Shown: positions 10,201 to 64,000, numbered from the stretch's first letter. The stretch is DNA of 64,000 nt from a plasmid (GCF_054482525.1 NZ_JBTHVG010000003.1), one strand, 5' to 3'. Notes: generated by a model not told the origin, from the letters alone. Numbers and translations are program-made.

Positions 10201-10425
10201 CTGCGCCCGATCGTGATGACCTCCATCGCCTTTATCGCCGGGACCATTCCGCTGATCCTCGGCCACGGCGCGGGGGCGGAAGTCCGCGGCGTCACCGGGA
10301 TCACGGTGTTCTCCGGGATGCTGGGCGTGACGCTCTTCGGTCTGTTCCTGACGCCGGTGTTTTACGTGACGCTACGGAAACTGGTGACCCGCAGGAAGCC
10401 GGTCCAGGAGGATCTGCCCGCCTAG
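7273..10425 (+). CDS. oqxB: RND multidrug efflux transporter OqxB
   Basis: 1050 aa, 12-TM RND architecture; immediately downstream of oqxA; GC-rich. Confidence 0.95.
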   Translation: MDFSRFFIDRPIFAAVLSILIFITGLIAIPLLPVSEYPDVVPPSVQVRAEYPGANPKVIAETVATPLEEAINGVENMMYMKSVAGSDGVLVTTVTFRPGTDPDQAQVQVQNRVAQAEARLPEDVRRLGITTQKQSPTLTLVVHLFSPGGKYDSLYMRNYATLKVKDELARLPGVGQIQIFGSGEYAMRVWLDPNKVAARGLTASDVVTAMQEQNVQVSAGQLGAEPLPQESDFLISINAQGRLHTEEEFGNIILKTAQDGSLVRLRDVARIEMGSGSYALRSQLNNKDAVGIGIFQSPGANAIDLSNAVRAKMAELATRFPEDMQWAAPYDPTVFVRDSIRAVVQTLLEAVVLVVLVVILFLQTWRASIIPLIAVPVSVVGTFSILYLLGFSLNTLSLFGLVLAIGIVVDDAIVVVENVERNIEEGLAPLAAAYQAMREVSGPIIAIALVLCAVFVPMAFLSGVTGQFYKQFAVTIAISTVISAINSLTLSPALAALLLKPHGAKKDLPTRLIDRLFGWIFRPFNRFFLRSSNGYQGLVGKTLGRRGAVFAVYLLLLCAAGVMFKVVPGGFIPTQDKLYLIGGVKMPEGSSLARTDAVIRKMSEIGMNTEGVDYAVAFPGLNALQFTNTPNTGTIFFGLKPFDQRKHTAAEINAEINAKIAQIQQGFGFSILPPPILGLGQGSGYSLYIQDRGGLGYGALQSAVNAMSGAIMQTPGMHFPISTYQANVPQLDVQVDRDKAKAQGVSLTDLFGTLQTYLGSSYVNDFNQFGRTWRVMAQADGPYRESVEDIANLRTRNNQGEMVPIGSMVNISTTYGPDPVIRYNGYPAADLIGDADPRVLSSSQAMTHLEELSKQILPNGMNIEWTDLSFQQATQGNTALIVFPVAVLLAFLVLAALYESWTLPLAVILIVPMTMLSALFGVWLTGGDNNVFVQVGLVVLMGLACKNAILIVEFARELEIQGKGIMEAALEACRLRLRPIVMTSIAFIAGTIPLILGHGAGAEVRGVTGITVFSGMLGVTLFGLFLTPVFYVTLRKLVTRRKPVQEDLPA

Positions 10426-10494
10426 CCTGCAGCAGATAACAAAAAAACCGCCTTCACAATTTGAAGGCGGTTTTTTTTCGTCACCAGAAAATGA

Positions 10495-10974
10495 TTAATG
10501 CGCTTTTTTAAAGCGGGCGATCATTTCCGGCACCGGGTCGCAGCCGCTGGTATCGGCGTTTTTGACCGCCTCCAGCGCGCTGGCCACGGTATGGCGAGCG
10601 AGGACGTTTAACGAAGCCTGCTCTGCTTCATCGGCAACCGATTTGAAGTACCAGCAGGCGTTGGCGCTGACCACGCAGCGGGCCGGGACGTCAGGACGCG
10701 ACGCCCACAGTTTTTTATCTTCGATAACCGAAAGATAGATATCACGCAGGGTGATCTTGTCCGCCGGACGGCCAAGATGAATTGAGCCGTTGCGACCAAG
10801 CGTGGAGACGATAATGCCGTCACGAGTTAGCGGAACCATTAGTTTACGGATAAAGCTCGGGTTCGCTTCCAGGCCGTAGGCCAGAATCGCACTCGTCGAA
10901 CGTTCACCCATCTGCTCCGCCATTGCTACGCTGAGAACCATCTGCAAAGCTGTCGGGAAGCGGTAATCTAACAT
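10495..10974 (-). CDS. oqxR: Rrf2-family transcriptional repressor OqxR
   Basis: Convergent to oqxB; start reassigned to internal Met (MLDYRFPTALQ...) because the ORF-track N-terminus reads through the IS26 end. Confidence 0.8.
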   Translation of the reverse strand: MLDYRFPTALQMVLSVAMAEQMGERSTSAILAYGLEANPSFIRKLMVPLTRDGIIVSTLGRNGSIHLGRPADKITLRDIYLSVIEDKKLWASRPDVPARCVVSANACWYFKSVADEAEQASLNVLARHTVASALEAVKNADTSGCDPVPEMIARFKKAH

Positions 10975-11023
10975 GGCAGTGTCCTGGGTTGCGGTGAATC
11001 TTGTTCTTTTTAGCACCGCAGAG

Positions 11024-11843
11024 GGCACTGTTGCAAAGTTAGCGATGAGGCAGCCTTTTGTCTTATTCAAAGGCCTTACATTTCAAAAACTCTGCTTACC
11101 AGGCGCATTTCGCCCAGGGGATCACCATAATAAAATGCTGAGGCCTGGCCTTTGCGTAGTGCACGCATCACCTCAATACCTTTGATGGTGGCGTAAGCCG
11201 TCTTCATGGATTTAAATCCCAGCGTGGCGTTGATTATCCGTTTCAGTTTGCCATGATCGCATTCAATCACGTTGTTCCGGTACTTAATCTGTCGGTGTTC
11301 AACGTCAGACGGGCACCGGCCTTCGCGTTTGAGCAGAGCAAGCGCGCGACCATAGGCGGGCGCTTTATCCGTGTTGATGAATCGTGGGATCTGCCACTTC
11401 TTCACGTTGTTGAGGATTTTACCCAGAAACCGGTATGCAGCTTTGCTGTTACGACGGGAGGAGAGATAAAAATCGACAGTGCGGCCCCGGCTGTCGACGG
11501 CCCGGTACAGATACGCCCAGCGGCCATTGACCTTCACGTAGGTTTCATCCATGTGCCACGGGCAAAGATCGGAAGGGTTACGCCAGTACCAGCGCAGCCG
11601 TTTTTCCATTTCAGGCGCATAACGCTGAACCCAGCGGTAAATCGTGGAGTGATCGACATTCACTCCGCGTTCAGCCAGCATCTCCTGCAGCTCACGGTAA
11701 CTGATGCCGTATTTGCAGTACCAGCGTACGGCCCACAGAATGATGTCACGCTGAAAATGCCGGCCTTTGAATGGGTTCATGTGCAGCTCCATCAGCAAAA
11801 GGGGATGATAAGTTTATCACCACCGACTATTTGCAACAGTGCC
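11024..11843 (-). mobile_element. IS26 copy 3 (same orientation as copy 2; with copy 2 brackets oqxAB-oqxR as a Tn6010-like composite unit)
   Basis: IRs read directly; identical transposase. Confidence 0.95.
11076..11780 (-). CDS. tnpA: IS26 transposase
   Basis: Identical protein to copies 1 and 2. Confidence 0.95.
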   Translation of the reverse strand: MNPFKGRHFQRDIILWAVRWYCKYGISYRELQEMLAERGVNVDHSTIYRWVQRYAPEMEKRLRWYWRNPSDLCPWHMDETYVKVNGRWAYLYRAVDSRGRTVDFYLSSRRNSKAAYRFLGKILNNVKKWQIPRFINTDKAPAYGRALALLKREGRCPSDVEHRQIKYRNNVIECDHGKLKRIINATLGFKSMKTAYATIKGIEVMRALRKGQASAFYYGDPLGEMRLVSRVFEM

Positions 11844-11987
11844 ACGCAAAGACGTAATGAGCAGTGTATCCCCTGCCACAATACCCTCTTCAGGGATGCT
11901 GTCAGTGGACGTCCAGTACTGACCCGCCAGCAAAGAATGAAATCGCTCTAAACGGTCAATGCTATTTTTGCTGACCAGGTCACCCAT
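11844..11987 (-). pseudogene. 5' fragment (48 codons) of a backbone gene truncated by IS26
   Basis: ATG at 11985-11987 with strong upstream SD (GGAAGGA); frame MGDLVSKNSIDRLERFHSLLAGQYWTSTDS... runs without stop into the IS26 end. Confidence 0.4.
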
Positions 11988-12184
11988 ATACTTTTCCTTC
12001 CAGATTCGTGTGTTAGGTGAATCATACCAGATTGCCCTTGCCGTCTAATAACGCAGAAAACTGTGAATCCAAAATTCCTTAAATTCAAACCTGTCCAATA
12101 TAAAAGATGGCTCTTTTTCTTATCCAGTGTTAAGCGATAATGCTCAATTTTATTTCATTATTGTCAGAATCAAAATAATCTGAA

Positions 12185-12212
12185 AATAAAAAAGGCTTCA
12201 GAATTGAAGCCT
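12185..12212 (-). terminator. Rho-independent terminator for gene 12238..12594
   Basis: Hairpin aggcttca-gaat-tgaagcct with adjacent A-run (U-run on minus transcript). Confidence 0.55.
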
Positions 12213-12237
12213 CTATATTATACAACGTGAATGTATT

Positions 12238-12594
12238 TTATTTATCTTTCACCGGGTTCATTTCCCAGTATCTTTCACGTACGTTTTCTTGGCAATGGTC
12301 CGCTCGCTCCGGCGTGTCCCTTTTACGAGTAGCAAATGCTTCAATTACGGCATTCAAGTCTTTTTCTTTGATTTTAGATCCAACAGGCAAGTTTTCTTCA
12401 AACTCAGTCCTTACCAGTTCTTTCGTTTTTTTATAATCGGTTTCACTTTGGATTTCAGGTTTTAAACAAATATCGGCAACCATCACATCTGATTTGCCCG
12501 GGATCGGTTTTTTCCCGTTTTCAGATGCAAGGACCGCAGAGGAGGTAAAGGCGACAGACAGAGTTGCACATAACAGAAGGTATTTTAATTTCAT
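12238..12594 (-). CDS. Secreted small protein, hypothetical (N-terminal signal peptide)
   Basis: MKLKYLLLCATLSVAFTSSAVLA signal-like N-terminus; terminator downstream. Confidence 0.5.
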   Translation of the reverse strand: MKLKYLLLCATLSVAFTSSAVLASENGKKPIPGKSDVMVADICLKPEIQSETDYKKTKELVRTEFEENLPVGSKIKEKDLNAVIEAFATRKRDTPERADHCQENVRERYWEMNPVKDK

Positions 12595-12743
12595 GACTCA
12601 CTCCATGATTATCAATGATGGTTGCTCAGACACATCATTTATACCATGCCTGTCACCGAATACGAGATCCCCATATTTTGGCTTTAAATATTATCCAATA
12701 GGGTTTCATACACCTGGCTTCTGAAAGCAAGGTTCAAGGAGCT

Positions 12744-13361
12744 TCAGGGGGAAATCAGATTGTTGTCGACCCAGTACTTGTGCAAACCTACCACCCAATT
12801 CCTGGAAATGGACGAAAGTTCATGCGCCAGTTCACGACAGCATTCAGGCGTAAAAATACGTATGGGTCCTGAAGTACCGATATCAACAGACATGATAAAC
12901 TCCAGAATGTTGCCATGGCATAGGTTGTTTCTCAGCCTGACAATTTCTGCTTCAGGTGTTCTCCCGGCTGCTACCTTAACCAACATATCCTGCTCGGCTG
13001 GAAATGAAAGTAATTCTACCGGCACCCCTTCCTGCTTGGCCTTTCTCAGTAAGGCATTACTCATTACGGAGATACCCTCCAAGTCCACCAGCTCAGGAGC
13101 TGCATGCTGATCGTTAACTGTTGGTTTCAGCATCAGCGACTTCAACGTAACCATGAGTGATGTTTCAATCCCGTTCAGGAAGCTCGTACAGGCCGGTATC
13201 CATAGTTCGTGATGCAACGCCTCGGTTGCTTGTTTAAAGAACCAGTCAATCACGGGGACAGTGTGATAATCATAATAGTGATTTATCTCGCTGAATCTTG
13301 ACATATAAGCATCGTACTCAGCCTGGTCTTCAGGAGATAAAAAATTTGGTGGGAGGGGCAT
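12744..13361 (-). CDS. Hypothetical protein
   Basis: 205-aa ORF, no recognised motifs. Confidence 0.4.
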   Translation of the reverse strand: MPLPPNFLSPEDQAEYDAYMSRFSEINHYYDYHTVPVIDWFFKQATEALHHELWIPACTSFLNGIETSLMVTLKSLMLKPTVNDQHAAPELVDLEGISVMSNALLRKAKQEGVPVELLSFPAEQDMLVKVAAGRTPEAEIVRLRNNLCHGNILEFIMSVDIGTSGPIRIFTPECCRELAHELSSISRNWVVGLHKYWVDNNLISP

Positions 13362-13515
13362 CAGAATCCTTTCATCCTAGCTTGTATACCTTCTTCGTAG
13401 GCCAGCTCGCCATTATCGGTAAAAGATGGTTTTTGGTGTTTGTGACAAAGCTTAATTTTTCGTCAGGCTCGATAGCGTTACCGGAGAGATTTGATCTTTT
13501 CTCTGTAACTCGCAA

Positions 13516-29722: not shown

Positions 29723-29798
29723 GTGCTGATTGTCCTTGCGCCATTACAATTGTTCAAATCTTCAACATGGATTTTTTGTTAGGTGTTCGGTAGGGTGA

Positions 29799-29809
29799 AA
29801 AGTAACTTT
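29799..29809. promoter_or_regulatory. AAAGT(A/T)ACTTT palindrome copy
   Basis: gAAAAGTAACTTTTAGta; 76 bp upstream of gene 28922..29722. Confidence 0.5.
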
Positions 29810-30049
29810 TAGTATTTTCTTAAGGCTTGAATAAGCCTTAAATCTATCCCTTCAACCACACCGCTTACTTGTAACACTTTTTAACCAAACTGACCAGAAT
29901 TTTATCAAAATTTCTTCGCATGCTAACGAAATGTGAAGCGATTAAAAAAAAACCTAAATCCAGCCCCTCCCAACGTTGGATTAGAATAACGACGTCTTTC
30001 ACTGACCGTCATAAACTGACATTTTTACTTTTCATCAACCTCATGCTTA

Positions 30050-30215
30050 CATAGGATCACTAAACAAAGAAAAGTGACCCTATGAATACCTCACATAGGG
30101 TCACTTATGTTTGAAAAGTGACCCTATGTAATGTCGTCATAGGGTCACTTTTTATAAAAGTGTCACTATGGACAAAGTTCCATAGGGTCATTTTTTTTGG
30201 AAAAGTGGCACTAGA
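30050..30215. repeat. Four tandem ~44-bp units each built on an inverted repeat (AAAGTGACCCTATG-N9-CATAGGGTCACTT); candidate oriT or iteron region
   Basis: Units at ~30071, 30115, 30158, 30201 read directly; divergent intergenic region between the mating-pair and relaxase operons. Confidence 0.55.
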
Positions 30216-30283
30216 TATATGTATAACTTTAATAGAGCAATGCACATTATCAAAAGCAATAATCCACAATGGTCATTCCCTCA

Positions 30284-30294
30284 AAAGTAACTTT
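30284..30294. promoter_or_regulatory. AAAGT(A/T)ACTTT palindrome copy
   Basis: cAAAAGTAACTTTAGAgg; upstream of the relaxase operon, next to the tandem repeats. Confidence 0.5.
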
Positions 30295-30426
30295 AGAGGG
30301 TAGCGATGGAAGTGAGGCTAAACTCGCTGTTACTGTTTCTGAAGGCCCCTCCCGAATGGGGGAAACAGCGAGTGCATTACATCTGTTCAATTCCCTCATC
30401 AAAGAGCATTCAAAAATCTTCTGTTC

Positions 30427-30966
30427 GTGAAAAAAAACGGAAATTTCCTCCGGTATAGTAATTTCACATCAGGAGGCGTCATGAGTAATTCGAATCTTAT
30501 AAGTTCTATAGAGCTAACACGTAAAAATTTACGTGCTCAGATTGAAGGTTTGCGTGTTGAGGCTGAAGATCTCATTACAAAATACTGGATCAAGTGGAAG
30601 GAACGAAACCACCAAGAGATTAACCTTACCCGACATAGCAAAGTTCCAAAGAGGGAGTATCTGGGTTCTTACGCACCAAAAGTTGAGCTAATTGGTAATG
30701 CCAGAAAAGTAACGATCACTTGGCATCAGTTCAGCCCTTATAAAACAAGAGCGCCTAGTCACATGTCAAAACGGGTGCAACCAATGAAAAGTGGAAAATA
30801 TTCTAAGAACTGTTTTGTAAACCATGCCAGCTGGGAATACGAAATGATTTCTGAAACGGAAGCATTGCTGGAGCCTTACAGAGAAATGCTTGAGCTCTAT
30901 CATTCAGCATATATCGAACTTGGACGAAAAATCCGTCAATACTCAAAAACTAAGGTGGCACAATGA
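30427..30966 (+). CDS. Hypothetical protein, first gene of the relaxase operon (possible relaxosome accessory)
   Basis: 179-aa ORF; probable true start at internal MSNSNL. Confidence 0.45.
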   Translation: MKKNGNFLRYSNFTSGGVMSNSNLISSIELTRKNLRAQIEGLRVEAEDLITKYWIKWKERNHQEINLTRHSKVPKREYLGSYAPKVELIGNARKVTITWHQFSPYKTRAPSHMSKRVQPMKSGKYSKNCFVNHASWEYEMISETEALLEPYREMLELYHSAYIELGRKIRQYSKTKVAQ

Positions 30967-51907: not shown

Positions 51908-52066
51908 CTACTTACCGGATTCGTAGGCCAGGATAGCAAATACCTCCCTTGTTCCGTCTTTCATCCGCAACTCGCAAAGCGAGTTTCGTGTGAGCCAGGT
52001 GAATATCAACAGCGTTAAACAAACTATTAATATGCACAAAACAATGGGTTGGTTCGGCATTTTCAT
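51908..52066 (-). CDS. hok: Hok/Gef-family type I toxin (52 aa)
   Basis: [52 protein letters not shown] matches the Hok family; ORF-track N-terminal extension is a mok-like upstream frame. Confidence 0.8.
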
Positions 52067-52164
52067 GGCCTTCTTCTCCTTGCATTTAAGCAGGCAAGAG
52101 GCTACGCTGTGTGTGACTAGCATACAGGGGCCTCGGGTTGTACTGACCCCAGAAAGTTGGACAG

Positions 52165-53016
52165 TTAAACACGAGGCATATAGGTCTGATTCCGATATTC
52201 AATTGGAGTCAGACCTTTTAATTTCAGGCTAATTCTTCTGCTGTTGTAGTATTCAATATATTCCGTAACAGCATCCTTCAGCTCGCTTATATTACTGAAC
52301 TCATCAAGATAAAAACACTCCGACTTTAAGGTTCCAAAGAAACACTCCACCACAGCATTATCCAGACAATTGCCTTTTCTGGACATGCTTTGTTTAATAC
52401 CATGTTCTTTAAGGATATTTTGATATCTTCTCATACGATACTGCCATCCCTGGTCAGAGTGCAGAACAGGATGCTCGTGAGGATTAAGCTTTTTGAATGC
52501 CTGATCGAGCATATTCTCGACCATGTTCATCACTGGTCTTTCCGAAAGGCTGTAAGAAATAACTTCGTTGTTGAAGAGATCTATTACTGGAGACAAATAC
52601 AGCTTGCGCCCATTGACTGCAAATTCAGTAACATCGGTAACCCACTTCTCGTTTGGCCGCGTAGCCTTGAAATCTCTTTGGAGAACATTGGGGGCGGTTT
52701 GCCCTACCTCTCCTCTGTAAGAGCGGTATCGCTTGACCTTAATCGCTGCCTTCAGTGAGAGGATTCCCATCAGGCGCTGAACAGCTTTATGGTTAATCTG
52801 TTTCCCTTCTCGATGAAGAGACAGCGTTACCCTACGGTATCCGTATCGGCCTCTATTCTCATGATAAATCTCACCAATACGCTTTTTAACGTCCGCATAC
52901 TTGTCAGGCTTGCTGAGAGCCTTTAGATGGTAATAAAACGTACTGCGCGGTATCTCCGCAGCCCTGAGAAGCTCATCAAGAGGATAAAACTGCCTTAGCT
53001 CGTTGAGTACTTTCAC
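52165..53016 (-). CDS. IS150 transposase OrfB (DDE domain)
   Basis: 283 aa; IS3-family integrase core. Confidence 0.9.
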
Positions 53017-53534
53017 TTTTTCGTGGGATGAGCTAAGGCTTTCAGCTTTTTTAGATACACAAGCCGCGTTTCAAGAAATCGAACTTGCCTTTCAAGATCC
53101 TCAATGCGTCGGTCTTTTGACAGCTCCAATGCTGATGCCGCTTTTTCTGGATCAACTGATATTGCAATGTTTCTTTTGGTGCCAATCTTGAGCGCGCGTA
53201 AACCAGCTTCTCCGCGCTCTTCATAAACCTTCAGCCACCTGGCTACAGAACCACTACCAGCAAGCATAAAGTGAGCAGCAGCCTGATTAAGGGACATGTG
53301 CTGCTCGATCACCGCTTTCACGACCTTAATACGCAACTCAGGATCAGCACTAACACCTTTAGGTTTGGGAATTAAACCTTTTTCTCCATGTTTTTCATAG
53401 AGGGCAACCCATGTCCTGACCTGGGTTCGGGGGACACCAAAACGTGCCGAGATGATCCTGTAACCATCATCAGTAGTGAAGTAGTGATTCACGACTTCAA
53501 GGCGCTTTTCAAAAGGGTATTTTGGCTTTGACAT
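53013..53534 (-). CDS. IS150 transposase OrfA (HTH)
   Basis: 173 aa; overlaps orfB as expected for a frameshift-fusion arrangement. Confidence 0.9.
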   Translation of the reverse strand: MSKPKYPFEKRLEVVNHYFTTDDGYRIISARFGVPRTQVRTWVALYEKHGEKGLIPKPKGVSADPELRIKVVKAVIEQHMSLNQAAAHFMLAGSGSVARWLKVYEERGEAGLRALKIGTKRNIAISVDPEKAASALELSKDRRIEDLERQVRFLETRLVYLKKLKALAHPTKK

Positions 53535-54969: not shown

Positions 54970-55343
54970 ATTATATCCTTAAGCCAACACGAACTGCGCC
55001 ACAAAAATTAATGTGGCGCAATTTACCATAAACAATAAACATCAGATACCCGTGAAGAGATTTCCCTTTATTTTAAAATTCTTCTGGAGAAAAAATGATA
55101 TTTCCAGAAGAAGTCAGCGAAATTCAGAAACGGCCATCACAATGGTGCTGCGCTGACGCTGGCGTTCTGCCTTGCGCTGCCTGCGGCGATAGATCTATTT
55201 TGCGCTGACGTAAGGGCAGTCCTCACGGGTATACCAGCAGCAGCCGCAAGGTTCGGGCCGGGGTTTTCCGGCAAGTCCAAATGGTTTCATCAAGTCACCT
55301 TTTTAATATTTTTAATGGCAAGATACTTCCCTAACACATTGTT

Positions 55344-55655
55344 TTATCGCATATAACGCTGTTGCATAAACAGATACAGATAACCCTCAGGAGAAAACAT
55401 GCAAAGGTTATCAGTGATAACCGCATCCAGATACCGAGTGTCAGTCTGTAAACGTTTTATCACCAGAAAATGTGCTGCCGCAGCCTTAATGCCAGAACTA
55501 CCGTTTACAACATTATGTATACCCGCTTCGAATAACGAACGAGCATGAATTACCTTTTCCCGGGCCGCTTCGATCTCCGCATTAATAACGCATTGCCGCG
55601 CCTGGATGACTGCCTCTCCGGTTAAATCGCGGAAATTCATTAGAGATGTGATCAT
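55344..55655 (-). CDS. Hypothetical protein
   Basis: 103-aa ORF. Confidence 0.35.
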   Translation of the reverse strand: MITSLMNFRDLTGEAVIQARQCVINAEIEAAREKVIHARSLFEAGIHNVVNGSSGIKAAAAHFLVIKRLQTDTRYLDAVITDNLCMFSPEGYLYLFMQQRYMR

Positions 55656-55877
55656 GATTAACTCTCCAGATTATGTGGAATCATTATAACAACTGGCATC
55701 CCGCCACAAATAACCTGAGAAAAATTCTTTGAAATATTCCTATATATAAGGAATTACAGTCGGAAAAGAAACGATGAAATAGCGCCGACCGCTTAAAATC
55801 GATAAATTAAAATGGACGGCACTGGAATGAAAAACTGAAAGTAGTAAGACCGTAATTATCCTTCACGGATGTAAGCT

Positions 55878-56078
55878 TTATAAGAGGAGTACTGGCAAAG
55901 CTTTGCCAAGTACTTCGGCGGTTGTGTCTACGATTTTACGGATGTCATCGATCTGCGAAGGCTTATTCAACACCACCGTAAAAAGCTCTCCTTCGTTATC
56001 AGCCTGCTCGCAGTTTCCGTATCGGCTCCCGTCGTACAGCTGCACAATACGTGACATAGAAGACTTTGTTTGTTTCAT
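55878..56078 (-). CDS. Small hypothetical protein
   Basis: 66-aa ORF downstream of the 74-aa paralog gene. Confidence 0.3.
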   Translation of the reverse strand: MKQTKSSMSRIVQLYDGSRYGNCEQADNEGELFTVVLNKPSQIDDIRKIVDTTAEVLGKALPVLLL

Positions 56079-56117
56079 GGCTTTGCACCTGCTTTTAGGC
56101 AGTTTGGTTACTGGTTA

Positions 56118-56342
56118 TCAGAAGCTGGTTTCATGCGCTTCCGGCTGGGACACGAACTGGTATTTGACGCCGCCAGGCACACCTACTGCTTCGGCAATAG
56201 AGTCGCAAAGCCGCGATAAATCATTTAGTGTCATCGGATATTCAATATCTACAGAATATAAAGCACCTGCATTTTCAGCATCTTCGATGTTTTTATACTG
56301 GGCACTAAATATAGCAATGGTCTGAATTTCGTGGTTATGCAT
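56118..56342 (-). CDS. Small conserved protein, paralog A (shares motif with 61307..61546)
   Basis: ...DIEYPMTLNDLSRLCDSIAEAVGVPGGVKYQF... vs ...DIEHPMTLNDLSLLCESVADAVGAPGGIKYEI... Confidence 0.5.
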   Translation of the reverse strand: MHNHEIQTIAIFSAQYKNIEDAENAGALYSVDIEYPMTLNDLSRLCDSIAEAVGVPGGVKYQFVSQPEAHETSF

Positions 56343-56396
56343 GAACCGGTCCTTATTAAATTATAAAAGCCACCCGAGAGTGGCCTGAGTTGAAAC

Positions 56397-56600
56397 TTAA
56401 ATCTGTGAAGTATTTTTGAGAGATTTTTTGCGATCCAGATGCCGGGCAACAATGGTTCCGATAACAAGTAGCATGATGACCGCACTGAAGAAGGTGCTGT
56501 CAGGGACGCCCTGGAAAAAATCACTGAAACTGTAAACAATAAAAATCAATGCGCAAAAATAGAAAACGATACGAACATAAGGGGTAAAAAACATTTTCAT
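56397..56600 (-). CDS. Small membrane protein, hypothetical
   Basis: 67 aa, hydrophobic; palindrome copy 141 bp upstream. Confidence 0.35.
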   Translation of the reverse strand: MKMFFTPYVRIVFYFCALIFIVYSFSDFFQGVPDSTFFSAVIMLLVIGTIVARHLDRKKSLKNTSQI

Positions 56601-56740
56601 CGGTTGCCTTCCATTCAGGGAGAATTCTCAGTAATTACATCACACCTGAAGAGAAACTATTTTCGTATAAATGAGCATTTTCGACATATCAGAGGGGGGG
56701 TTTACTCATAAATGAGGTAGTAAGGGTCACACTTGAGGTG

Positions 56741-56751
56741 AAAGTTACTTT
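56741..56751. promoter_or_regulatory. AAAGT(A/T)ACTTT palindrome copy
   Basis: gtGAAAGTTACTTTCCtg; upstream of gene 56397..56600. Confidence 0.5.
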
Positions 56752-56779
56752 CCTGGCTGCGAACGAACTATCTCAAATG

Positions 56780-57073
56780 TTAGAGGTGTGCGTTCGCCTT
56801 GAGAGCCTCATGCCCTGAGGAGCTCAACTTGAGCCGATAGTATAAACCTGGCTCCAGATGGCTTGCTGGCTGGCATAACTCCACGAGGCCGAGCCGGAAC
56901 AGGACCGGAGAGCTCCTGCACGTCACATCATCAGGATTCCCCATAAACGTACGCCGTTCTCTGGCCCGTCTGAAATTGCCAGAGATATCATAGACCGTGC
57001 CGGATGCCATCCGTCGTAACACGTAAATCTGTGCCATTGTAAGCTTCTGGGCGGAACTGCTTAAACCTGACAT
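56780..57073 (-). CDS. Hypothetical protein
   Basis: 97-aa ORF. Confidence 0.3.
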   Translation of the reverse strand: MSGLSSSAQKLTMAQIYVLRRMASGTVYDISGNFRRARERRTFMGNPDDVTCRSSPVLFRLGLVELCQPASHLEPGLYYRLKLSSSGHEALKANAHL

Positions 57074-57152
57074 ACCTTCCCCTCCTTATATAAAACAATC
57101 CGCCAGCAGCTCGACTGGCGGACAATGTTTGACTGGCAACAGCAAGGACATA

Positions 57153-57644
57153 CTATTTAGTGACAAGTTTGATCTTGGTTTCACTCATTCGAAGTCGAAA
57201 CTCCTGAAAACCCTGCTCTACCGCTAACTCCAGCCACTCAACGGGAATGGTATAGCTACAATCAGACCCACCCAAAGCGGCATCACAAGCGTAATCCCAG
57301 TCCTCATCCAGTTTTGGATTCATCCCCTGGGCGTAAGCCACAGTATCGCGGGATGCGGGAGAGCCCTCAAGCTCAGCATTAGTGATCAGGTATACACCAT
57401 GACTGTGCGCGAGAAGCACTTTTGGCACCAGATGTGTGCTGGCAATTTTTGAGGATGAGGGAAAGAAAACCCTACCAGCTTTACGCGCCTCTTCTTCAGT
57501 CTGTCCCTCAGCGTTAAGGAGGGCTCCCCCCGGATAGCATGCCGGGTCATAGATCTGATCTGCGGTGACCGAAAACGTTTTTGCGGTGCGAATTTCTTCG
57601 ATCAGTTTATTAATATCCGCCATTTCAAATACGAGAGTGGTCAC
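57153..57644 (-). CDS. Hypothetical protein
   Basis: 163-aa ORF. Confidence 0.4.
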   Translation of the reverse strand: MTTLVFEMADINKLIEEIRTAKTFSVTADQIYDPACYPGGALLNAEGQTEEEARKAGRVFFPSSSKIASTHLVPKVLLAHSHGVYLITNAELEGSPASRDTVAYAQGMNPKLDEDWDYACDAALGGSDCSYTIPVEWLELAVEQGFQEFRLRMSETKIKLVTK

Positions 57645-57648
57645 AGGC

Positions 57649-57996
57649 TTACTCTCCCTCTTCAGTGGACAACATCAGATACTTTGTTGCCAGCAGAAGC
57701 TCTCCCACATCCTTGAGGGACAATTCAGCTTTGCCTTCTACGGCAAGCTGCAAGCGCTGTCGAATTGCATGAACAGAATCTGAAGATAAAGATGCCATTT
57801 TGCGCAAAACGGCATTAGCCTTTTCTACAGCAGGATACAGAATTTCTGAGTTGGTATTATCTTCGTCATTATCAAAGATAATTTCAGAATCCATATTGAT
57901 GTTATCTTCAAGCCAGCTTGAAAGCACTTCAAGTAATGACATCACCTTTTCAATTTGCATATCGCCTCCTCTGTTAATGTGAAACAAATATAACAA
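57649..57996 (-). CDS. Acidic hypothetical protein
   Basis: 115 aa, Asp/Glu-rich. Confidence 0.4.
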   Translation of the reverse strand: MLYLFHINRGGDMQIEKVMSLLEVLSSWLEDNINMDSEIIFDNDEDNTNSEILYPAVEKANAVLRKMASLSSDSVHAIRQRLQLAVEGKAELSLKDVGELLLATKYLMLSTEEGE

Positions 57997-58475
57997 AGTG
58001 GCTTACCCGGCTAATAACCTGAGCAGAAAGTTTTCGCACTTTGTTTGAAAACAACTTTTCTGCTCAGGTTAATGTTAAAGTCGCTGTGTAAAAGATAAAG
58101 GGCACTAAAGATGATTTAAGCATCAAACAGACTAAATCGGATTCCGTCTTTTATATCGCTTTTAAAATAGAATGAATGAAATATAAATTTAGCGTTTATG
58201 ATTGAACGCTGTAGAGGTTGATTTATCCAGTGATATTCAGTTTGGGGCCTTAAAAAGGTTTTATTTTGGATTCGAATTACAAAGGGAGCACCGACATTTT
58301 TCTGGGGGCTCCCGCAGAGAAAAAGCGGTGAGGCTATGAAGACGAAGAGGAGGTATTCGACGAAATACTGTATGGCCACAGGAGAGCTTCAGCACCCATA
58401 TCCTGCCGTCTCGCTCGCCTGTAATGATTTCAACATGTACAACGTCATACCACGTAGTTGTATTTCTCACTTTGT

Positions 58476-58796
58476 TTATGCTTCCTGACACCGTGTGAAC
58501 GCAATCTTCGTCTGGATGCGTTCATAGATGGAAAACTGCCTTTCAATGGAACCGGCATTAGACAGTAATTCATGAAGCTCAGCAGAGTCTGTATCGGGAA
58601 CGATAGCTACAGAAACTCCATATCTCCGTCCAATTTTGATTAGGTGCGCAAGCTGTTCTTTTTCGGATTCTGTGAGCATTGCCAGATCTCTTCCGGACAC
58701 CTGCTCTATAAACGAACCAAGGTTTTTGGGAAAAAAGGGTTCGGCATCAGAGTTATGTGCTGGGCGCGTCTGCGGCTTATCGAAGCTATTGGGCAT
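58476..58796 (-). CDS. Hypothetical protein
   Basis: 106-aa ORF. Confidence 0.35.
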   Translation of the reverse strand: MPNSFDKPQTRPAHNSDAEPFFPKNLGSFIEQVSGRDLAMLTESEKEQLAHLIKIGRRYGVSVAIVPDTDSAELHELLSNAGSIERQFSIYERIQTKIAFTRCQEA

Positions 58797-58947
58797 GAAT
58801 AGAACCTATACAGTTAGAGAACTGGAGAATGGATAAAGACTCTATGAAAATCAGTTGTGCTACACTCGAATGCTAATCAAGCTTTATGATGGCTTTAGTA
58901 GGGATGGCCGTCAACTTAAACCGATAAGAAGGGAGCCATTTATCGTT

Positions 58948-58958
58948 AAAGTAACTTT
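58948..58958. promoter_or_regulatory. AAAGT(A/T)ACTTT palindrome copy
   Basis: tTAAAGTAACTTTCCCgg; intergenic. Confidence 0.5.
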
Positions 58959-58975
58959 CCCGGATGATGCTCTTT

Positions 58976-59203
58976 TTACGAAATAAGTTTCTCACACTCC
59001 TGTATAAGAGTCGCCCTGGAACGAGATCGACTGGCTTTGCTTAATGAAGAGCGTAGTTGATGTTCATCAACCCCATCAGCGATAAACTGACCGATTTTTG
59101 TTTCAAGCCGCTGCATTGCCTCGTAAAGCTTGGCATCCGCATTATTTTTAAGAAACCTCAGTATATAATCAGCAATAATTTGGACGGGAGTGAACTTATA
59201 CAT
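58976..59203 (-). CDS. Small hypothetical protein
   Basis: 75-aa ORF. Confidence 0.3.
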   Translation of the reverse strand: MYKFTPVQIIADYILRFLKNNADAKLYEAMQRLETKIGQFIADGVDEHQLRSSLSKASRSRSRATLIQECEKLIS

Positions 59204-59430
59204 TATGTATCCTTAAGACGTTGTGTTAAATGATTCAAAAAAATTTATAACCAGACGTAAATTATTATACATAAGTAAGCACTTTAGCTAACAAGCTGGA
59301 GGAGTGAATTTCGGTTAGCAACTATATTTTAGAAGCTGATTGCTGAATAGACAAAGCCCGGCTTACCGGGCATTCATTTAATTAGATGCTAGAAATCTGA
59401 CCCGTCGTCTGACTTTTATTCCAGGCAGAG

Positions 59431-60042
59431 TTAGGAACTAATAATGATGGCCTGGTCAGTTTGAGGAAGCCGGTTTCCTCTGATAAATGCAGGGTGGTTT
59501 AAACGAGAAGAAGAAATGGTCATCGCCAGAAATGTCTCTTCACGCGAACGCAGAAATTCCCCCCATGAATAGGTTTCCCATACGTCGTGAGAAAGGTCGG
59601 ATTCCTTTATGTACCGGGATTGCATTGTTGGCTCAAAATCGACAGGGGCTAAACTGTCATAGGATGGATGAACACGGTACCCCAATCCCTCCTCCGTCTG
59701 ATGGTATGCATGTGCCAAAAGGACATCGTGGGAGACCAGGTCATAGTCGTTGTCCTGAACGAGCGTTTTTACGGTATGACTAATTTCCCCAAAGCCGTCT
59801 ATTTCCCAGAGCGTTATCATTGTGAACTCAGCTAAAGTTCGTGGGCTCTTTACCAGAAAGCCATTTAATGCTCGTCGCCCCTTCAGCATGCCAACGTGGT
59901 AGGTCTTGTTGGGATAGGGTTTCATTGCCACCAGCGAATCAGCTTTAAGCTCAAGTGACAATTCAGGGACAGACACGGACATGAGAGTACACTTGTTTTT
60001 CATATGGTGAAGAATACGTGGCACAAGATGCAGATACATCAT
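59431..60042 (-). CDS. Hypothetical protein
   Basis: 203-aa ORF; true start may be internal. Confidence 0.4.
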   Translation of the reverse strand: MMYLHLVPRILHHMKNKCTLMSVSVPELSLELKADSLVAMKPYPNKTYHVGMLKGRRALNGFLVKSPRTLAEFTMITLWEIDGFGEISHTVKTLVQDNDYDLVSHDVLLAHAYHQTEEGLGYRVHPSYDSLAPVDFEPTMQSRYIKESDLSHDVWETYSWGEFLRSREETFLAMTISSSRLNHPAFIRGNRLPQTDQAIIISS

Positions 60043-60153
60043 TTTCTCCTTTTATGGATATAACTGGCAGATCCTCAGCAGCATCAAAATAGTTAATAGA
60101 CTTTTTTAATTGGTTAACCACTGTTGATTGACTTGTTTTATGTCTCTGAGAAA

Positions 60154-60720
60154 TTATTCGTTTTGTTTCTGTTCGTTATACTGCTCAAACCAGAAGACGA
60201 CCGGTTTTACTACAATATGAAGCAAACCAAAACGTTCTGCGGTACGGAAATTCACGCTATATGCGCGAGCCCGTTCAACCTGTTTGGTAATTTCATTTCT
60301 CATTCCTTCAACACTAAAAGCTCCTTTAAAAAGGTTGCAGGGAGCGCATGATGGAAATAAGTTTTCTATTGCATGCAGTTCAGGGTGCATAACCTTACCC
60401 GTACTTCGGGCAACATGAGTTACGCCGCTGCCGACCGGGGCTCTCACCAGTTCAAAGTCGCGTCGAACAGGCTCAACATGATCGGCATGCCACCCTTTTT
60501 CAGGAAGCTTGCAACCACAATAGGCACAACGCCCCCCAAATTTCATTCGCAGCTCAGCTCGCTGTATTTTAGAGATCTTATTTTTAGGTTTTGAGAACCT
60601 ACCATCAGGTGATTCCGCTTTGGATAACTTTGCTGAGGGCTCAGGTAACTCAACTAAATTCCCGTTGATATTTATCACCTTGACCATATCATTTTCCGCC
60701 TTTACTAATCTCACGGGCAC
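60154..60720 (-). CDS. HNH endonuclease (zinc-finger-containing HNH motif)
   Basis: ...GGRCAYCGCKLPEKGWHADHVEPV...CAPCN... HNH core. Confidence 0.65.
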   Translation of the reverse strand: MPVRLVKAENDMVKVININGNLVELPEPSAKLSKAESPDGRFSKPKNKISKIQRAELRMKFGGRCAYCGCKLPEKGWHADHVEPVRRDFELVRAPVGSGVTHVARSTGKVMHPELHAIENLFPSCAPCNLFKGAFSVEGMRNEITKQVERARAYSVNFRTAERFGLLHIVVKPVVFWFEQYNEQKQNE

Positions 60721-60747
60721 AGGAGCTGGCTTAAGTAACCGCTGAAG

Positions 60748-60936
60748 TTAACAGCCACTGACTGCCTCTACCCAGACCTTCTGTTTATACTCAATAGGCC
60801 ACCCCTCTTTATCTGCCCGGATGACGCAATCATTTACCGTGGTGCGTGACCGGATACGAACATCAAGCGGAAGCGAATCGTTATCCACACGAGCCTGTGC
60901 CTCATTTAAAATGCGTAAAAACATCTCTTTGGTCAT
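60748..60936 (-). CDS. Small hypothetical protein
   Basis: 62-aa ORF. Confidence 0.3.
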   Translation of the reverse strand: MTKEMFLRILNEAQARVDNDSLPLDVRIRSRTTVNDCVIRADKEGWPIEYKQKVWVEAVSGC

Positions 60937-61244
60937 TCAGATACCCCCTCAACTTTGCGAATTTTGATCAGATGAGGGCGATTCAGTTTACAAAGTTGTT
61001 CTGTCGCTTCATCAATCGAATTGAACCGATGAGCCTCTTCGATATTTAAAGTCCAGTATTTCGCTTTCCCTTCTCCCAGATCGGACTCAAAATAATTTCG
61101 CTTTACATCCATTTTTTTAGGCCTGCCATTTATCTTGACGACATTATGTCTGTCATCAAAAAGAAATTCGTCCCCCTCAAAAGTGATTAATACAAATGGC
61201 CCCTCAGGCTTGGAAGTCCGGGGACTTCCCATTTTCAAAGTCAT
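60933..61244 (-). CDS. Hypothetical protein
   Basis: 103-aa ORF. Confidence 0.35.
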   Translation of the reverse strand: MTLKMGSPRTSKPEGPFVLITFEGDEFLFDDRHNVVKINGRPKKMDVKRNYFESDLGEGKAKYWTLNIEEAHRFNSIDEATEQLCKLNRPHLIKIRKVEGVSE

Positions 61245-61306
61245 ACTTCAGCCTCTCGATAGAACTCATGAAACCTCAAATTAAAATGGACTCACACCAC
61301 ACTGAT

Positions 61307-61546
61307 TCAGTATTCCTCCTGAACCCCATTAGGCTCTGTTGTGATTTCATATTTAATACCGCCAGGTGCTCCCACAGCGTCCGCGACCGACTCACACAGC
61401 AGCGAGAGATCGTTGAGGGTCATTGGGTGTTCAATGTCCAGCGTGAAGAGTTTCCCGGCTTGCTTGGCGGCTGTCTTGTCAGCATGTTCAGCATTAAAAA
61501 GGTATACGGTGTGTTTTTCCTGAGCGGGGGTATTTTGATTTTGCAT
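61307..61546 (-). CDS. Small conserved protein, paralog B (shares motif with 56118..56342)
   Basis: See paralog A; palindrome copy 133 bp upstream. Confidence 0.5.
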   Translation of the reverse strand: MQNQNTPAQEKHTVYLFNAEHADKTAAKQAGKLFTLDIEHPMTLNDLSLLCESVADAVGAPGGIKYEITTEPNGVQEEY

Positions 61547-61678
61547 TGATGATCCTTTTGTTTAGTTCCCCGATTCCGGGGGTGAGTGAATTAATTTAAA
61601 TTTATATTTGTCTGGTTTAATTAGAACGTTTCCAGGCTATGCGTAAACAGGTAATGCAAAGGCTGTATCAACAGGATT

Positions 61679-61689
61679 AAAGTTACTTT
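61679..61689. promoter_or_regulatory. AAAGT(A/T)ACTTT palindrome copy
   Basis: tTAAAGTTACTTTTCTgg; 133 bp upstream of paralog B, downstream of the PAPS-reductase-like gene. Confidence 0.5.
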
Positions 61690-61795
61690 TCTGGATGCAG
61701 CAACGCTTGGACATGATGTCCACATTACATCACGATCAAAGCTAAGTTTTTTTTGTATAACCCCTTCATTTTCGTGTGTTTCGCGTTTCAGACGC

Positions 61796-64000
61796 TTATA
61801 CGACCTGCCTGACCATCCTCATCAGAAGGCGGTTTAACAGTCCTTTCGCTGTCGGGCGATTGCTATCGACATAGTAAAAACCTGTTTTGGTCGTACCGTG
61901 AGCACTGCTCAGCACCCTCAGTTCCCAGATAACGTCACGGATAACGCCGCCATTTTCTGGCTTAAGGCATTCAGATAAATGGCGCATGAAACGAGCTCTT
62001 ACGGCACGGTAATAGCGGAACTCCTCTGGCTGGTTAGTATTTTCTTTCACCCGGAGTCGCTGGTTACACAGAGTTAGAACTGCATCCATCATTCCCGCCT
62101 TCAGCTTCGCCTGGATCGCACCTTGTTGCTGTTCCCTCTCACCTTCGAGTAACGTTAAGATTCTTTCTCCGAGTGCCGTCTTGTTGTGTACGTGCAACTG
62201 TACACAGGCAGCTACGCATGCCCAGAATCTGAACTTTTTTATCTGTCCACGCAATTTCCGGGCTACAACCTGACGGTATGCAGTATCGCTGAGTATTTTA
62301 AAACGCCGACTGGCAACCAGCTCTGGAAGCGACACTCTTTCGCCTATCCCCAGGCGGGAAAAGGTTTGTCCCCGTTGTGCGAGACGATGATAGACAGCGC
62401 CCTTCCCTTTTGAAATTCGGACCGCGCCATAACGAAGAAGATACTGAGCAGCAGTCGTTGGAGTAAACTCACCGTCAGCGATGCTCTGGCGTAACCCGTC
62501 GTATTCATGCCAGATAATCCAGGACGCCGTATCTTCTTCAACAGTCAGCTCATCCTCTTCCTCGAATGCCACGACGACAGAACTGCTCTCTCCGGTCTTT
62601 AGGCTACGTGAAGCCCTGGGGTCAGCCTGCCCGTCAAAATAGGTCATCAGCGGCAACGTATCAGTCAGTCCATCATAAGCTGTACCGAACCGGCCTCCGG
62701 GCAGTTTCATCCAGAGTGGAGCTGGCATTGGTGTACGGGCCACAGGCAGCATGTCAGGCTCATCCTCAAGAAGGTCCAGATCGGCCTCTTCCCAGACTCT
62801 GCGATAGATCTCAATTGCCCGAAACGGGCGAGGGTTGAAACAGTGCAACGACCAGAGGAAATCAACGTGGATCACGTTTGCTTCATGTACAAGCCGAAAT
62901 TGTGGCTCAGCCATACGACGGTTATAAGCCGTATCGTCCACCTCGCCGGAAAGTAGCTTTCTGCGATGCTTTGCCGCACGTCTGGCTTCAACATAATCAA
63001 GGCTGCAACAGACATGAAAAAGACGTTCAGTCAGGGACGAAGAAAAGATATTGGGTTGAAGACGCACATACCCGCCTTCGAACACTTTACGACCGATATA
63101 ATCCCGCAGGCTCCAGTCGTACTGGATCTTAGAAAGAAATCGCTGAAGACGACTTAGGCCTGCCTGATAACCATATTTCTCAGGGTCAGTGCGAAGGAGC
63201 GTTTCCATTGAATGGTCAACCCCTACGGCTGTGCAAAGCGAGCACCCATATCTAGCCCCACAAGCTGAGGTTCGCGTGGGTTTCTCCGGCGACCAGATAC
63301 ACTCTCCGGTGGCGTCTTTATAAAGCGTTGCCAGGCTGAAGTTATCCGGCATAAAGCTTGGTAAAGGGAAGCGGGATTCGGAACCACAGGCCATTAGAAA
63401 AGACCAGATGTCCTGAGTGCGCCACTCCTTTACTGGATAGAGTTCACCACCGTGCTCAGTCAGGGTTACTTTCCTCGCCTGCCCTCCCATTTTGAGGATA
63501 TTTCCGGCCCTTCGGGCACTTTCATCATCCCTGGAGCCCAGCATCAGGCATACCCTGCTTCGTACGGATGCCGGGGCGTTTTTTAGATAACGAGCTTTGG
63601 CCTTGCGCAGGGGGGCGATTTTGTAGTCGGTTGAGCACTGACGGGTTGAAGAATTAGTCCAGGTCGGAAGTCCACGTCCAGTCAGAATGCGGCCTACCCA
63701 GCTCTGCGTAAGAGACGGTTGGGCGACAAGGACTGTGACCGGTAGCTGGTGTTCAGCAATGAACATTCTAAGCTGGTTGAGAACCTGTGAAGCCTGATAG
63801 TGCATCTCAGGGTTTTCGATCAGCGTATCGGACATCTGAATGAAATGATGTTCGCTGATATTTGTGCCGTTACGTACTGCCCTGATCAATGCCATCAGAA
63901 ATAGGTGAAGAAGAGAATGGGAGTCTTTACCGCCACTGTATCCCACGCACATCGTCCATCCGTCCGTAATAGCCTGATAAATAGCAGATGTGGCTGACGT
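61796..64000 (-). CDS. PAPS-reductase-like (PP-loop ATP pyrophosphatase, DndC-like) large protein; 5' end beyond the window
   Basis: ...VGYSGGKDSHSLLHLF... PP-loop SGGKDS motif; reading frame stays open upstream of the listed Met to position 64000. Confidence 0.6.
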   Translation of the reverse strand, partial: TSATSAIYQAITDGWTMCVGYSGGKDSHSLLHLFLMALIRAVRNGTNISEHHFIQMSDTLIENPEMHYQASQVLNQLRMFIAEHQLPVTVLVAQPSLTQSWVGRILTGRGLPTWTNSSTRQCSTDYKIAPLRKAKARYLKNAPASVRSRVCLMLGSRDDESARRAGNILKMGGQARKVTLTEHGGELYPVKEWRTQDIWSFLMACGSESRFPLPSFMPDNFSLATLYKDATGECIWSPEKPTRTSACGARYGCSLCTAVGVDHSMETLLRTDPEKYGYQAGLSRLQRFLSKIQYDWSLRDYIGRKVFEGGYVRLQPNIFSSSLTERLFHVCCSLDYVEARRAAKHRRKLLSGEVDDTAYNRRMAEPQFRLVHEANVIHVDFLWSLHCFNPRPFRAIEIYRRVWEEADLDLLEDEPDMLPVARTPMPAPLWMKLPGGRFGTAYDGLTDTLPLMTYFDGQADPRASRSLKTGESSSVVVAFEEEDELTVEEDTASWIIWHEYDGLRQSIADGEFTPTTAAQYLLRYGAVRISKGKGAVYHRLAQRGQTFSRLGIGERVSLPELVASRRFKILSDTAYRQVVARKLRGQIKKFRFWACVAACVQLHVHNKTALGERILTLLEGEREQQQGAIQAKLKAGMMDAVLTLCNQRLRVKENTNQPEEFRYYRAVRARFMRHLSECLKPENGGVIRDVIWELRVLSSAHGTTKTGFYYVDSNRPTAKGLLNRLLMRMVRQVV

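Follow-up and report, generated by a model that had tools for sequence, protein, structure and literature searches.

Why does the backbone of a conjugative plasmid carry a gene for a large protein resembling DndC, the sulfurtransferase of the Dnd system, apparently without a gene for any Dnd partner? The question is raised by a stretch of 64,000 nucleotides (nt) from a plasmid (GCF_054482525.1, NZ_JBTHVG010000003.1), referred to throughout as the window. Between positions 55,344 and 64,000 its minus strand carries a series of small genes and, at the window end, the 3' 2.2 kb of the gene for a 794-residue stand-alone DndC-like protein (WP_000469466.1). Megablast identified the 55.3–64 kb segment as backbone of IncHI2 plasmids: 1,039 PLSDB records matched, 806 of them at coverage of at least 80%. 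Most of the matching plasmids are 230–320 kb long, are typed as IncHI2A, MOBH and MPF_F, and come from Escherichia, Salmonella and Enterobacter. Every minus-strand open reading frame (ORF) listed in 55,344–64,000 by an earlier note on this DNA was found again in an ORF check. The region is a conserved part of the IncHI2 conjugative-plasmid backbone, a run of small, separately promoted genes that are DNA-related or have no known function. Judged by its sequence, the large protein clearly belongs to the DndC branch of the PP-loop/phosphoadenosine phosphosulfate (PAPS) reductase superfamily, and on the defining features tested it is outside DndC itself, SspD/BrxP, the IbrA-type pairs and CysH.

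The frame of the large gene is still open at position 64,000, and the true N-terminus had accordingly been placed outside the window. The matching plasmids agree: their protein has 794 residues, with the start codon about 180 nt beyond the window. Hence the first 60 codons are not covered, and the ATG at 63,952 encodes an internal residue, Met77. PAPS reductase has been the annotation of the gene from the earliest IncHI and IncA/C sequences onward, and the RefSeq product name of WP_000469466.1 is 'phosphoadenosine phosphosulfate reductase family protein'. The more specific description of the protein as DndC-like was upheld by profile searches. The PADLOC DndC profile matches residues 63–474 with an E-value of 4e-38, and the TIGR03183 model matches with an E-value of 6e-34. 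The TIGR03183 score, 117.6 bits, is far under the curated cutoff of 290.4, thus the protein is not a DndC equivalog. The PADLOC BrxP profile yields a weak match (E 4.7e-6, 23 bits), and in Pfam the protein matches PAPS_reduct (PF01507) alone, and weakly (E 3e-5), as do 27 of its 33 aligned homologues. The PADLOC 'Type II methyltransferase' model (MTase_II, PDLC03333) also matches the PAPS-reductase domain (residues 65–334, E 7.5e-23; L001 22813–25194), which would imply that fusions of this domain with DNA methyltransferases exist.

In the alignment of the 33 homologues, with identity down to 26%, the residues S82-G-G-K-D-S87, C182, C294, C307, C313, C316 and R603 are invariant (Table 1). The five cysteines are of the DndC type; C182, C294, C313 and C316 are spaced like the cysteines reported as essential for DndC in work on S. 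lividans. In the AlphaFold model of the protein (predicted local distance difference test score, pLDDT, 86.7) the loop carrying the cysteine segment has low pLDDT. The CxxC dyad, here C313-x2-C316, has been described as unique to DndC relative to SspD/BrxP (PMC12839542).

The PP-loop/PAPS-reductase fold occupies residues ~60–345. Structural matches of this domain are the PAPS domain of flavin adenine dinucleotide (FAD) synthase, adenosine phosphosulfate (APS) reductase, flavin mononucleotide (FMN) adenylyltransferase and the Fe-S tRNA thiolase TtuA, and a PDB sequence search with the protein and its profile returned PP-loop enzymes only, with weak E-values. The C-terminal half, earlier called unassigned, indeed matches no Pfam family and has no structural neighbour in the PDB. 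When 1.84 billion representatives were searched with a profile of the C-terminal part, 455 clusters were retrieved. The C-terminal module, whose conserved portion comprises 270 residues, begins at residue ~285–420 of proteins of 560–890 residues in nearly all full-length matches, hence it is found only behind the PP-loop domain.

The ratio of nonsynonymous to synonymous substitution rates (dN/dS) of the large gene is 0.10 in comparison with a 98%-identical relative, and 0.08, with synonymous sites saturated, in comparison with a 76%-identical one. In the tail (residues 611–794) dN is about four times that in the rest of the protein. These ratios indicate that the gene is under strong purifying selection. 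They also bear on the explanation that the gene is a decaying or functionless passenger. Such a passenger might be suspected from the truncated forms in the databases (clusters of 582-, 600- and 484-residue proteins), from split copies in some distant loci and from insertion sequences in the distal array of many plasmids. Yet dN/dS of 0.08–0.10, catalytic residues that are invariant even in remote homologues and a full-length cluster of 1,052 members versus 113 in the main truncated one make it very improbable. As for the split copies, in the distant loci L016, L021 and L022 (~10000–13400 in each) the homologue is divided into two or three ORFs or interrupted, and these may be pseudogenes or insertions.

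Could the protein supply the modification step of a known system (Dnd, Ssp or BREX type 4), with the other genes located outside the window? PP-loop enzymes of the DndC class occur in these systems, and both the DndC and the BrxP models of PADLOC match. The earlier note had recognized none of the obligate partners in the window, and none were found in the 15 kb upstream of the gene or in the annotation of a complete 238-kb IncHI2 plasmid (NZ_LT599829.1), where neither DndA/B/D/E/F/G/H nor SspA/B/C/E nor BREX genes (BrxC/L, PglZ) are annotated. Extension of the sequence upstream revealed no known complete system. At least six DNA methyltransferases are annotated on the same plasmid. We then considered 22 loci encoding relatives of the protein, which represent IncHI2, an IncHI1-like lineage, IncC, Citrobacter plasmids, Shewanella, Halioglobus, Rhodovibrio, Noviherbaspirillum and others, as well as Desulfobulbus and Thermodesulfovibrio metagenome-assembled genomes. 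All-against-all BLASTP of the ORFs from these loci identified no conserved neighbour, the DndC-like gene being the sole gene common to the divergent backbones. The contig profile search for further relatives was built on 18 closer sequences. With no partner in the annotation, none conserved among the loci and a score under the DndC cutoff, the explanation by a known system is largely refuted, and we give it next to no credence.

Genes for the HNH nuclease and the small acidic proteins follow downstream; we count these products as neighbours of the large protein, not as demonstrated partners. Two upstream products, of 149 and 263 residues, were considered as hidden ParB- or DndB-like partners and rejected: neither matches NCBIfam, PHROG, Pfam or PDB entries, and neither is similar to the DGQHR protein of Citrobacter plasmids. 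The gene for the latter, DndB-like protein is located two genes upstream of a 669-residue homologue (L006 8443–9558). It scores 160 bits against TIGR03187 (cutoff 59) and is the only Dnd-related neighbour in any context, occurring in one lineage.

The IncHI1 homologue, from pHCM1 (Q935R1), has 75% identity to the large protein and is present in AFDB50, as are members from Vibrio, Photobacterium, Burkholderia, Acidithiobacillus and Aromatoleum. An IncC homologue with 47% identity is present in 695 plasmids. A tblastn search with the N-terminal domain matched 2,812 of 72,556 PLSDB plasmids (~4%). Of these, 2,165 are conjugative; Pseudomonas megaplasmids and Bacillus pXO1-like plasmids are among the matches. 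More distant relatives (25–29% identity; H72–H76) were seen on Bacillus thuringiensis and B. anthracis plasmids of pXO1 size and on 400-kb megaplasmids of Pseudomonas aeruginosa. Large plasmids in general thus seem to carry solitary genes of the PAPS-reductase family. Relatives are found in conjugative contexts or ones resembling integrative and conjugative elements (ICEs), with ParA/ParB, SPI-7-type DnaB and coupling protein genes; orphan methyltransferases, RadC, DUF4942 and DUF3085 are further neighbours. In the IncC array the order is ssb-bet-exo, DUF3150, VWA, dcm, the DndC-like gene, yfbR and primase. In IncHI2 a module of AAA ATPase, DUF3150, VWA and toprim genes is located elsewhere on the plasmid (L028 41638–47927; L027 2420–10410, 26606–28333). 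Going by similarly annotated genes, the contents of the arrays appear to have been shuffled between IncHI2 and IncC.

What, then, may the protein do? A modification or anti-defence role is the most plausible. Our tentative proposal, short of an even chance, is that the protein is a self-contained sulfurtransferase, dependent on ATP and Fe-S, whose substrate is nucleic acid, most likely the DNA of the element itself. The enzyme would bind an Fe-S cluster, and the cysteine desulfurase of the host, IscS, would supply persulfide sulfur, as has been reported for partner-less dnd clusters of enterobacteria. ATP would activate an oxygen on the nucleic-acid substrate, which sulfur would then replace. 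The private C-terminal module may provide substrate binding, as DndD/DndE or SspB/SspC do in the known systems. With the DNA of the element as the most likely substrate, the modification would function alongside that made by orphan DNA methyltransferases and would aid survival in new hosts. The link to DNA comes from the orphan DNA methyltransferases in arrays with the gene, the ssb-bet-exo and primase genes of IncC, the DGQHR/DndB-like gene of Citrobacter and the match of the MTase_II model to the N-terminal domain.

Several observations weigh against this proposal. DndD and DndE, needed by every characterized DndC, are not annotated on the plasmid, and the TIGR03183 score falls under the DndC cutoff. 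The closest solved structures are those of small-molecule and tRNA enzymes, and structure comparison revealed no recognizable DNA-binding fold in the C-terminal module. Strains with IncC or IncHI2 plasmids are not known to show the DNA degradation in pulsed-field gels that is typical of phosphorothioation. The literature searched contained nothing on the function of the PAPS-reductase gene of IncHI and IncC plasmids, nor any remark on its architecture. The stronger version of the proposal is that the protein is a single-polypeptide DNA sulfur-modification enzyme, combining a DndC-type core with its own targeting module, so that IncHI and IncC plasmids, many ICEs and megaplasmids would thiolate their own DNA, at the backbone or the bases, without DndD/E or SspB/C. 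We regard this version as unlikely.

The same chemistry could be directed elsewhere. The protein could thiolate RNA (tRNA or rRNA) or participate in the synthesis of a thio-nucleotide or cofactor, like the PP-loop Fe-S enzymes of the TtuA/TtcA/LarE type, and in that way tune the translation or metabolism of the host for the plasmid. The neighbours among solved structures include TtuA, LarE, FAD synthase and APS reductase, and the PP-loop and cysteine chemistry is common to all of them. However, the similarity to the DndC profile is ~30 orders of magnitude better than that to any tRNA-thiolation or assimilation family, the gene is found among genes of DNA enzymes on mobile elements, and it has no cys or tRNA-modification neighbours. 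Action on RNA or small molecules is therefore rather improbable.

The earlier note had the array headed by the large gene, which is not the case: the same-strand array runs at least 14 kb further upstream, past the window end. There it includes two hypothetical genes (149 and 263 aa), a 416-aa DNA methyltransferase, a 202-aa S-adenosylmethionine (SAM) methyltransferase, a flavin reductase, a RelE/ParE toxin and an Ig-like protein. The array starts at ~40.9 kb of the window, beyond the Tra1 transfer genes, is transcribed toward the origin of transfer (oriT), and occupies the minus strand at 40.9–47 kb and 53.8–64 kb, being broken by a short plus-strand block (47.8–49.9 kb), a hok-type toxin gene and an IS3-family element (52165–53534). 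This element (orfA of 173 aa, orfB of 283 aa) sits between the hok-type gene (51908–52123) and a 201-aa gene and is missing at the corresponding site of the reference plasmid L001. The distal array carries different insertion sequences in different plasmids (IS1, IS3, IS21-family, IS66, IS100, ISVsa5), which suggests that its part at ~56100–56800 is an insertion hotspot or that its genes are dispensable.

Neither is the array one operon, since it contains several units with upstream elements of their own. The motif CCRGRAAAGTWACTTT is common to three intergenic regions, upstream of the 79-aa, 106-aa and 67-aa genes and 130–150 nt before the start codon. Its palindromic core, AAAGTNACTTT, was counted 17 times in the window; most copies are intergenic, and they include both sides of oriT; shuffling gives an expectation of 0.6 for the 16-mer. 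The whole IncHI2 plasmid contains it ~50 times. In an IncHI1-like locus with 76% identity (L010) it occurs three times, one copy keeping its position immediately 3' of the large gene, and the IncC loci contain none. This distribution suggests that AAAGTNACTTT is an operator bound by a regulator acting throughout IncHI, similar to the KorA/KorB operators of IncP, and argues for an array of several units that are co-regulated with other genes of the backbone. The literature searched contained nothing specific on the motif, and scans for promoter and terminator consensus sequences gave no more matches than shuffled sequences.

Table 1. Features of the window (aa, amino acids; coordinates are positions in the window unless a locus is given)
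Feature	Coordinates	Strand	Remark
Large DndC-like protein gene, 3' part	61796..64000	-	aa 61–794 of 794
PP-loop motif SGGKDS (aa 82–87)	63920..63937	-	invariant in 33 homologues
C182	63635–63637	-	invariant
Cysteine-rich segment C294...C307...C313-x2-C316	63233..63301	-	all invariant; presumed [4Fe-4S] ligands including the DndC-type CxxC dyad
Family-specific alpha/beta module (aa 345–610)	62351..63148	-	conserved; no Pfam family, no known fold
Variable helical tail (aa 611–794)	61799..62350	-	fast-evolving; absent or different in distant homologues
Palindromic motif copy (core AAAGTNACTTT)	61679..61694	-	~130 nt upstream of the 79-aa gene
79-aa acidic protein	61307..61546	-	paralogue of the 74-aa protein
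103-aa protein	60933..61244	-	phrog_30913 (no known function)
62-aa protein	60748..60936	-	no family
HNH endonuclease	60154..60720	-	phrog_2118, E 1.7e-55; RefSeq product 177 aa, slightly shorter
203-aa protein	59431..60042	-	DUF6012 family
75-aa protein	58976..59203	-	phrog_1344 (no known function)
Second palindromic motif copy	58948..58963	-	~150 nt upstream of the 106-aa gene
106-aa protein	58476..58796	-	no family
DUF957 protein, 103 aa as annotated	57649..57960	-	very acidic (pI 4.4)
163-aa DUF3085 protein	57153..57644	-	acidic; homologue also in the IncC array
Third palindromic motif copy	56741..56756	-	~140 nt upstream of the 67-aa gene
67-aa hydrophobic protein	56397..56600	-	
74-aa acidic protein	56118..56342	-	paralogue of the 79-aa protein
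66-aa protein	55878..56078	-	third paralogue, weakly similar (34% identity with the 74-aa protein)
103-aa protein	55344..55655	-	no family
Insertion-sequence region	~56100–56800		equivalents L001 17065–18278, L025 1142–3449, L026 966–2787
Further AAAGTNACTTT positions	46952, 46826, 41777, 36875, 35145, 33707, 30284		
Further AAAGTNACTTT positions	29799, 29358, 26739, 19827, 17734, 16833, 15269		

The small genes at 55344–61546 are listed in Table 1. Here the earlier reading fared well: the two paralogues of ~75 aa share 50% identity (E 2e-26), the HNH endonuclease was recognized by its PHROG profile, and several of the products are acidic, with isoelectric points (pI) of 4.4–4.8. Two ORFs listed earlier, 58261–58491 and 56780–57073, are not annotated in the RefSeq records. 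The HNH gene was considered as a Septu or retron effector and rejected, as it produced weak PtuB-like hits only (E 1e-4 to 1e-2); neither a PtuA ATPase nor a reverse transcriptase gene is located near it. A near-perfect stem of ~21 bp (AACCTGAGCAGAAAGTTTTC...GAAAACAACTTTTCTGCTCAGGTT) was observed at 58016–58070, flanked by the unannotated 76-aa ORF and the gene for the DUF957 protein.

Direction of transcription toward oriT raises the explanation that the array is a leading-region anti-defence island. It would then enter the recipient first and be expressed early from the single strand, and its DndC-like enzyme, HNH nuclease and acidic proteins would act as early anti-defence factors. The probable oriT is the intergenic region 29723–30430 (~29.7–30.4 kb), which is flanked by a trhR-like gene (minus strand) and mobI (plus strand) and is packed with GAAAAGTGACCCTATG / CATAGGGTCACTT copies in direct and inverted orientation. 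For the related plasmid R27, oriT is reported to have been mapped to the same traH-trhR interval. Every gene of the array is oriented toward oriT, as required if the transferred strand is the template. Moreover, orphan methyltransferases, a hok-type toxin and DUF4942/RadC-type genes are present in the IncHI2 or homologous arrays, and so are acidic small proteins.

The position of the array argues against this explanation. After mobI follow the genes for the MobH relaxase, coupling protein, DUF4400 protein, S49 peptidase and NERD protein, and only then the minus-strand array. It begins 10 kb from oriT, extends to 46 kb from it, and lies behind mobI, the relaxase and coupling-protein genes and other tra genes. 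Relaxase genes are normally located in the lagging region, which is transferred last (PMC3737333). This polarity would make the array the last part to be transferred, and single-strand expression would require the other strand. The literature searched offered nothing specific on the polarity of MOBH transfer. The IncC array is co-oriented with mobI and located 48–75 kb upstream of oriT-mobI, whereas the IncHI2 array is downstream of mobI and anti-oriented. Since the two arrays are on opposite sides of oriT-mobI, only one of them can be leading if the nick polarity is conserved.

The contents of the array point the same way. Family scans detected no ardA, psiB, klcA or ssb in the window part, and no long Frpo-like hairpin was found when the intergenic DNA of both strands was folded. 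The best hairpin candidates are the stem at 58,016–58,070 and the 374-nt intergenic region 54970–55343 (54,970–55,343), which is unusually structured as single-stranded DNA (z-score −3.8, no shuffle being as good) and is branched. Rfam and tRNA scans gave no hits. The palindromic motif also flanks tra promoters, pointing to ordinary regulated promoters on double-stranded DNA. The leading-region status of the array, which the earlier note had offered as one reading, is therefore unsupported, and we think it unlikely that the array is such an island. The probability not taken by the sulfurtransferase proposal, the leading-region island, the RNA or small-molecule enzyme, the known system and the passenger falls to some other explanation.

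Nothing in the analysis demonstrates a new mechanism; the gene is widespread on clinically important plasmids and conserved. Plasmids of the IncHI2, IncHI1 and IncC types rank among the chief vehicles of mcr, carbapenemase and extended-spectrum beta-lactamase (ESBL) genes. If the protein modifies plasmid DNA or aids establishment, it would provide a new kind of plasmid-borne epigenetic or anti-defence function, could account for a part of the broad host range of these plasmids, would present a target for blocking their transfer and would be a minimal one-protein model of DndC chemistry, the mechanism of which is unclear even in the classical system. Were a single polypeptide sufficient, the main multidrug-resistance plasmids would bear a previously unrecognized epigenetic mark or anti-restriction function. 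Given the strong conservation, absence of any measurable effect would be puzzling.

Comparison with known systems shows where the protein stands. It shares with DndC (DptC), the Dnd sulfurtransferase, the PP-loop motif and the conserved cysteines including the CxxC dyad, and DndC is the best profile match of any family (E 1e-34 to 1e-38), the homologous region comprising roughly residues 60–470. Unlike DndC, it is ~300 residues longer, having the private conserved module and the helical tail. It has neither DndD/DndE (or A/B/FGH) on the plasmid nor a conserved neighbour, and its gene is located in small-gene arrays of conjugative elements, not in a dnd operon.

PAPS-reductase proteins of the IbrA/YbdN type pair with ParB-like IbrB/YbdM on mobile elements and are predicted to act on DNA. 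Similarly to these, the large protein is a PAPS-reductase-family enzyme on mobile DNA without sulfate-assimilation partners. It differs from them in that no ParB-like gene is adjacent in IncHI2 (neither the products encoded upstream nor those downstream match ParB, NCBIfam, PHROG or Pfam entries), no DUF3440-type Pfam hit was obtained in 33 members, and the C-terminal module is different. An assimilatory PAPS/APS reductase (CysH, a single domain of ~245 aa encoded in a cys operon) was rejected, as the large protein has 794 aa, is plasmid-borne, matches PF01507 weakly and has no cys genes nearby. With SspD/BrxP of the Ssp and BREX type 4 systems it shares the PAPS-reductase/PP-loop core and the presumed involvement in sulfur transfer to DNA. 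The match to these proteins is weak, however, the large protein retains the cysteine dyad absent from them (PMC12839542), and no DUF4007/SspB, SspC/BrxC, PglZ or BrxL genes are found near it.

As in the leading regions rich in anti-defence genes (Samuel et al. 2024, PMC11541004), a long one-strand run of small genes is directed toward oriT and includes methyltransferases. Unlike those regions, the array is not adjacent to oriT, and neither single-stranded-DNA promoter hairpins nor hallmark genes were found in it; the DndC-like family and IncHI are not mentioned in that study. The remaining comparison is with orphan DNA methyltransferases of conjugative plasmids. These differ from the large protein, whose role we infer, in chemistry and fold; they are like it in being solitary, lacking a cognate nuclease and belonging to the same arrays, and an analogous role is proposed.

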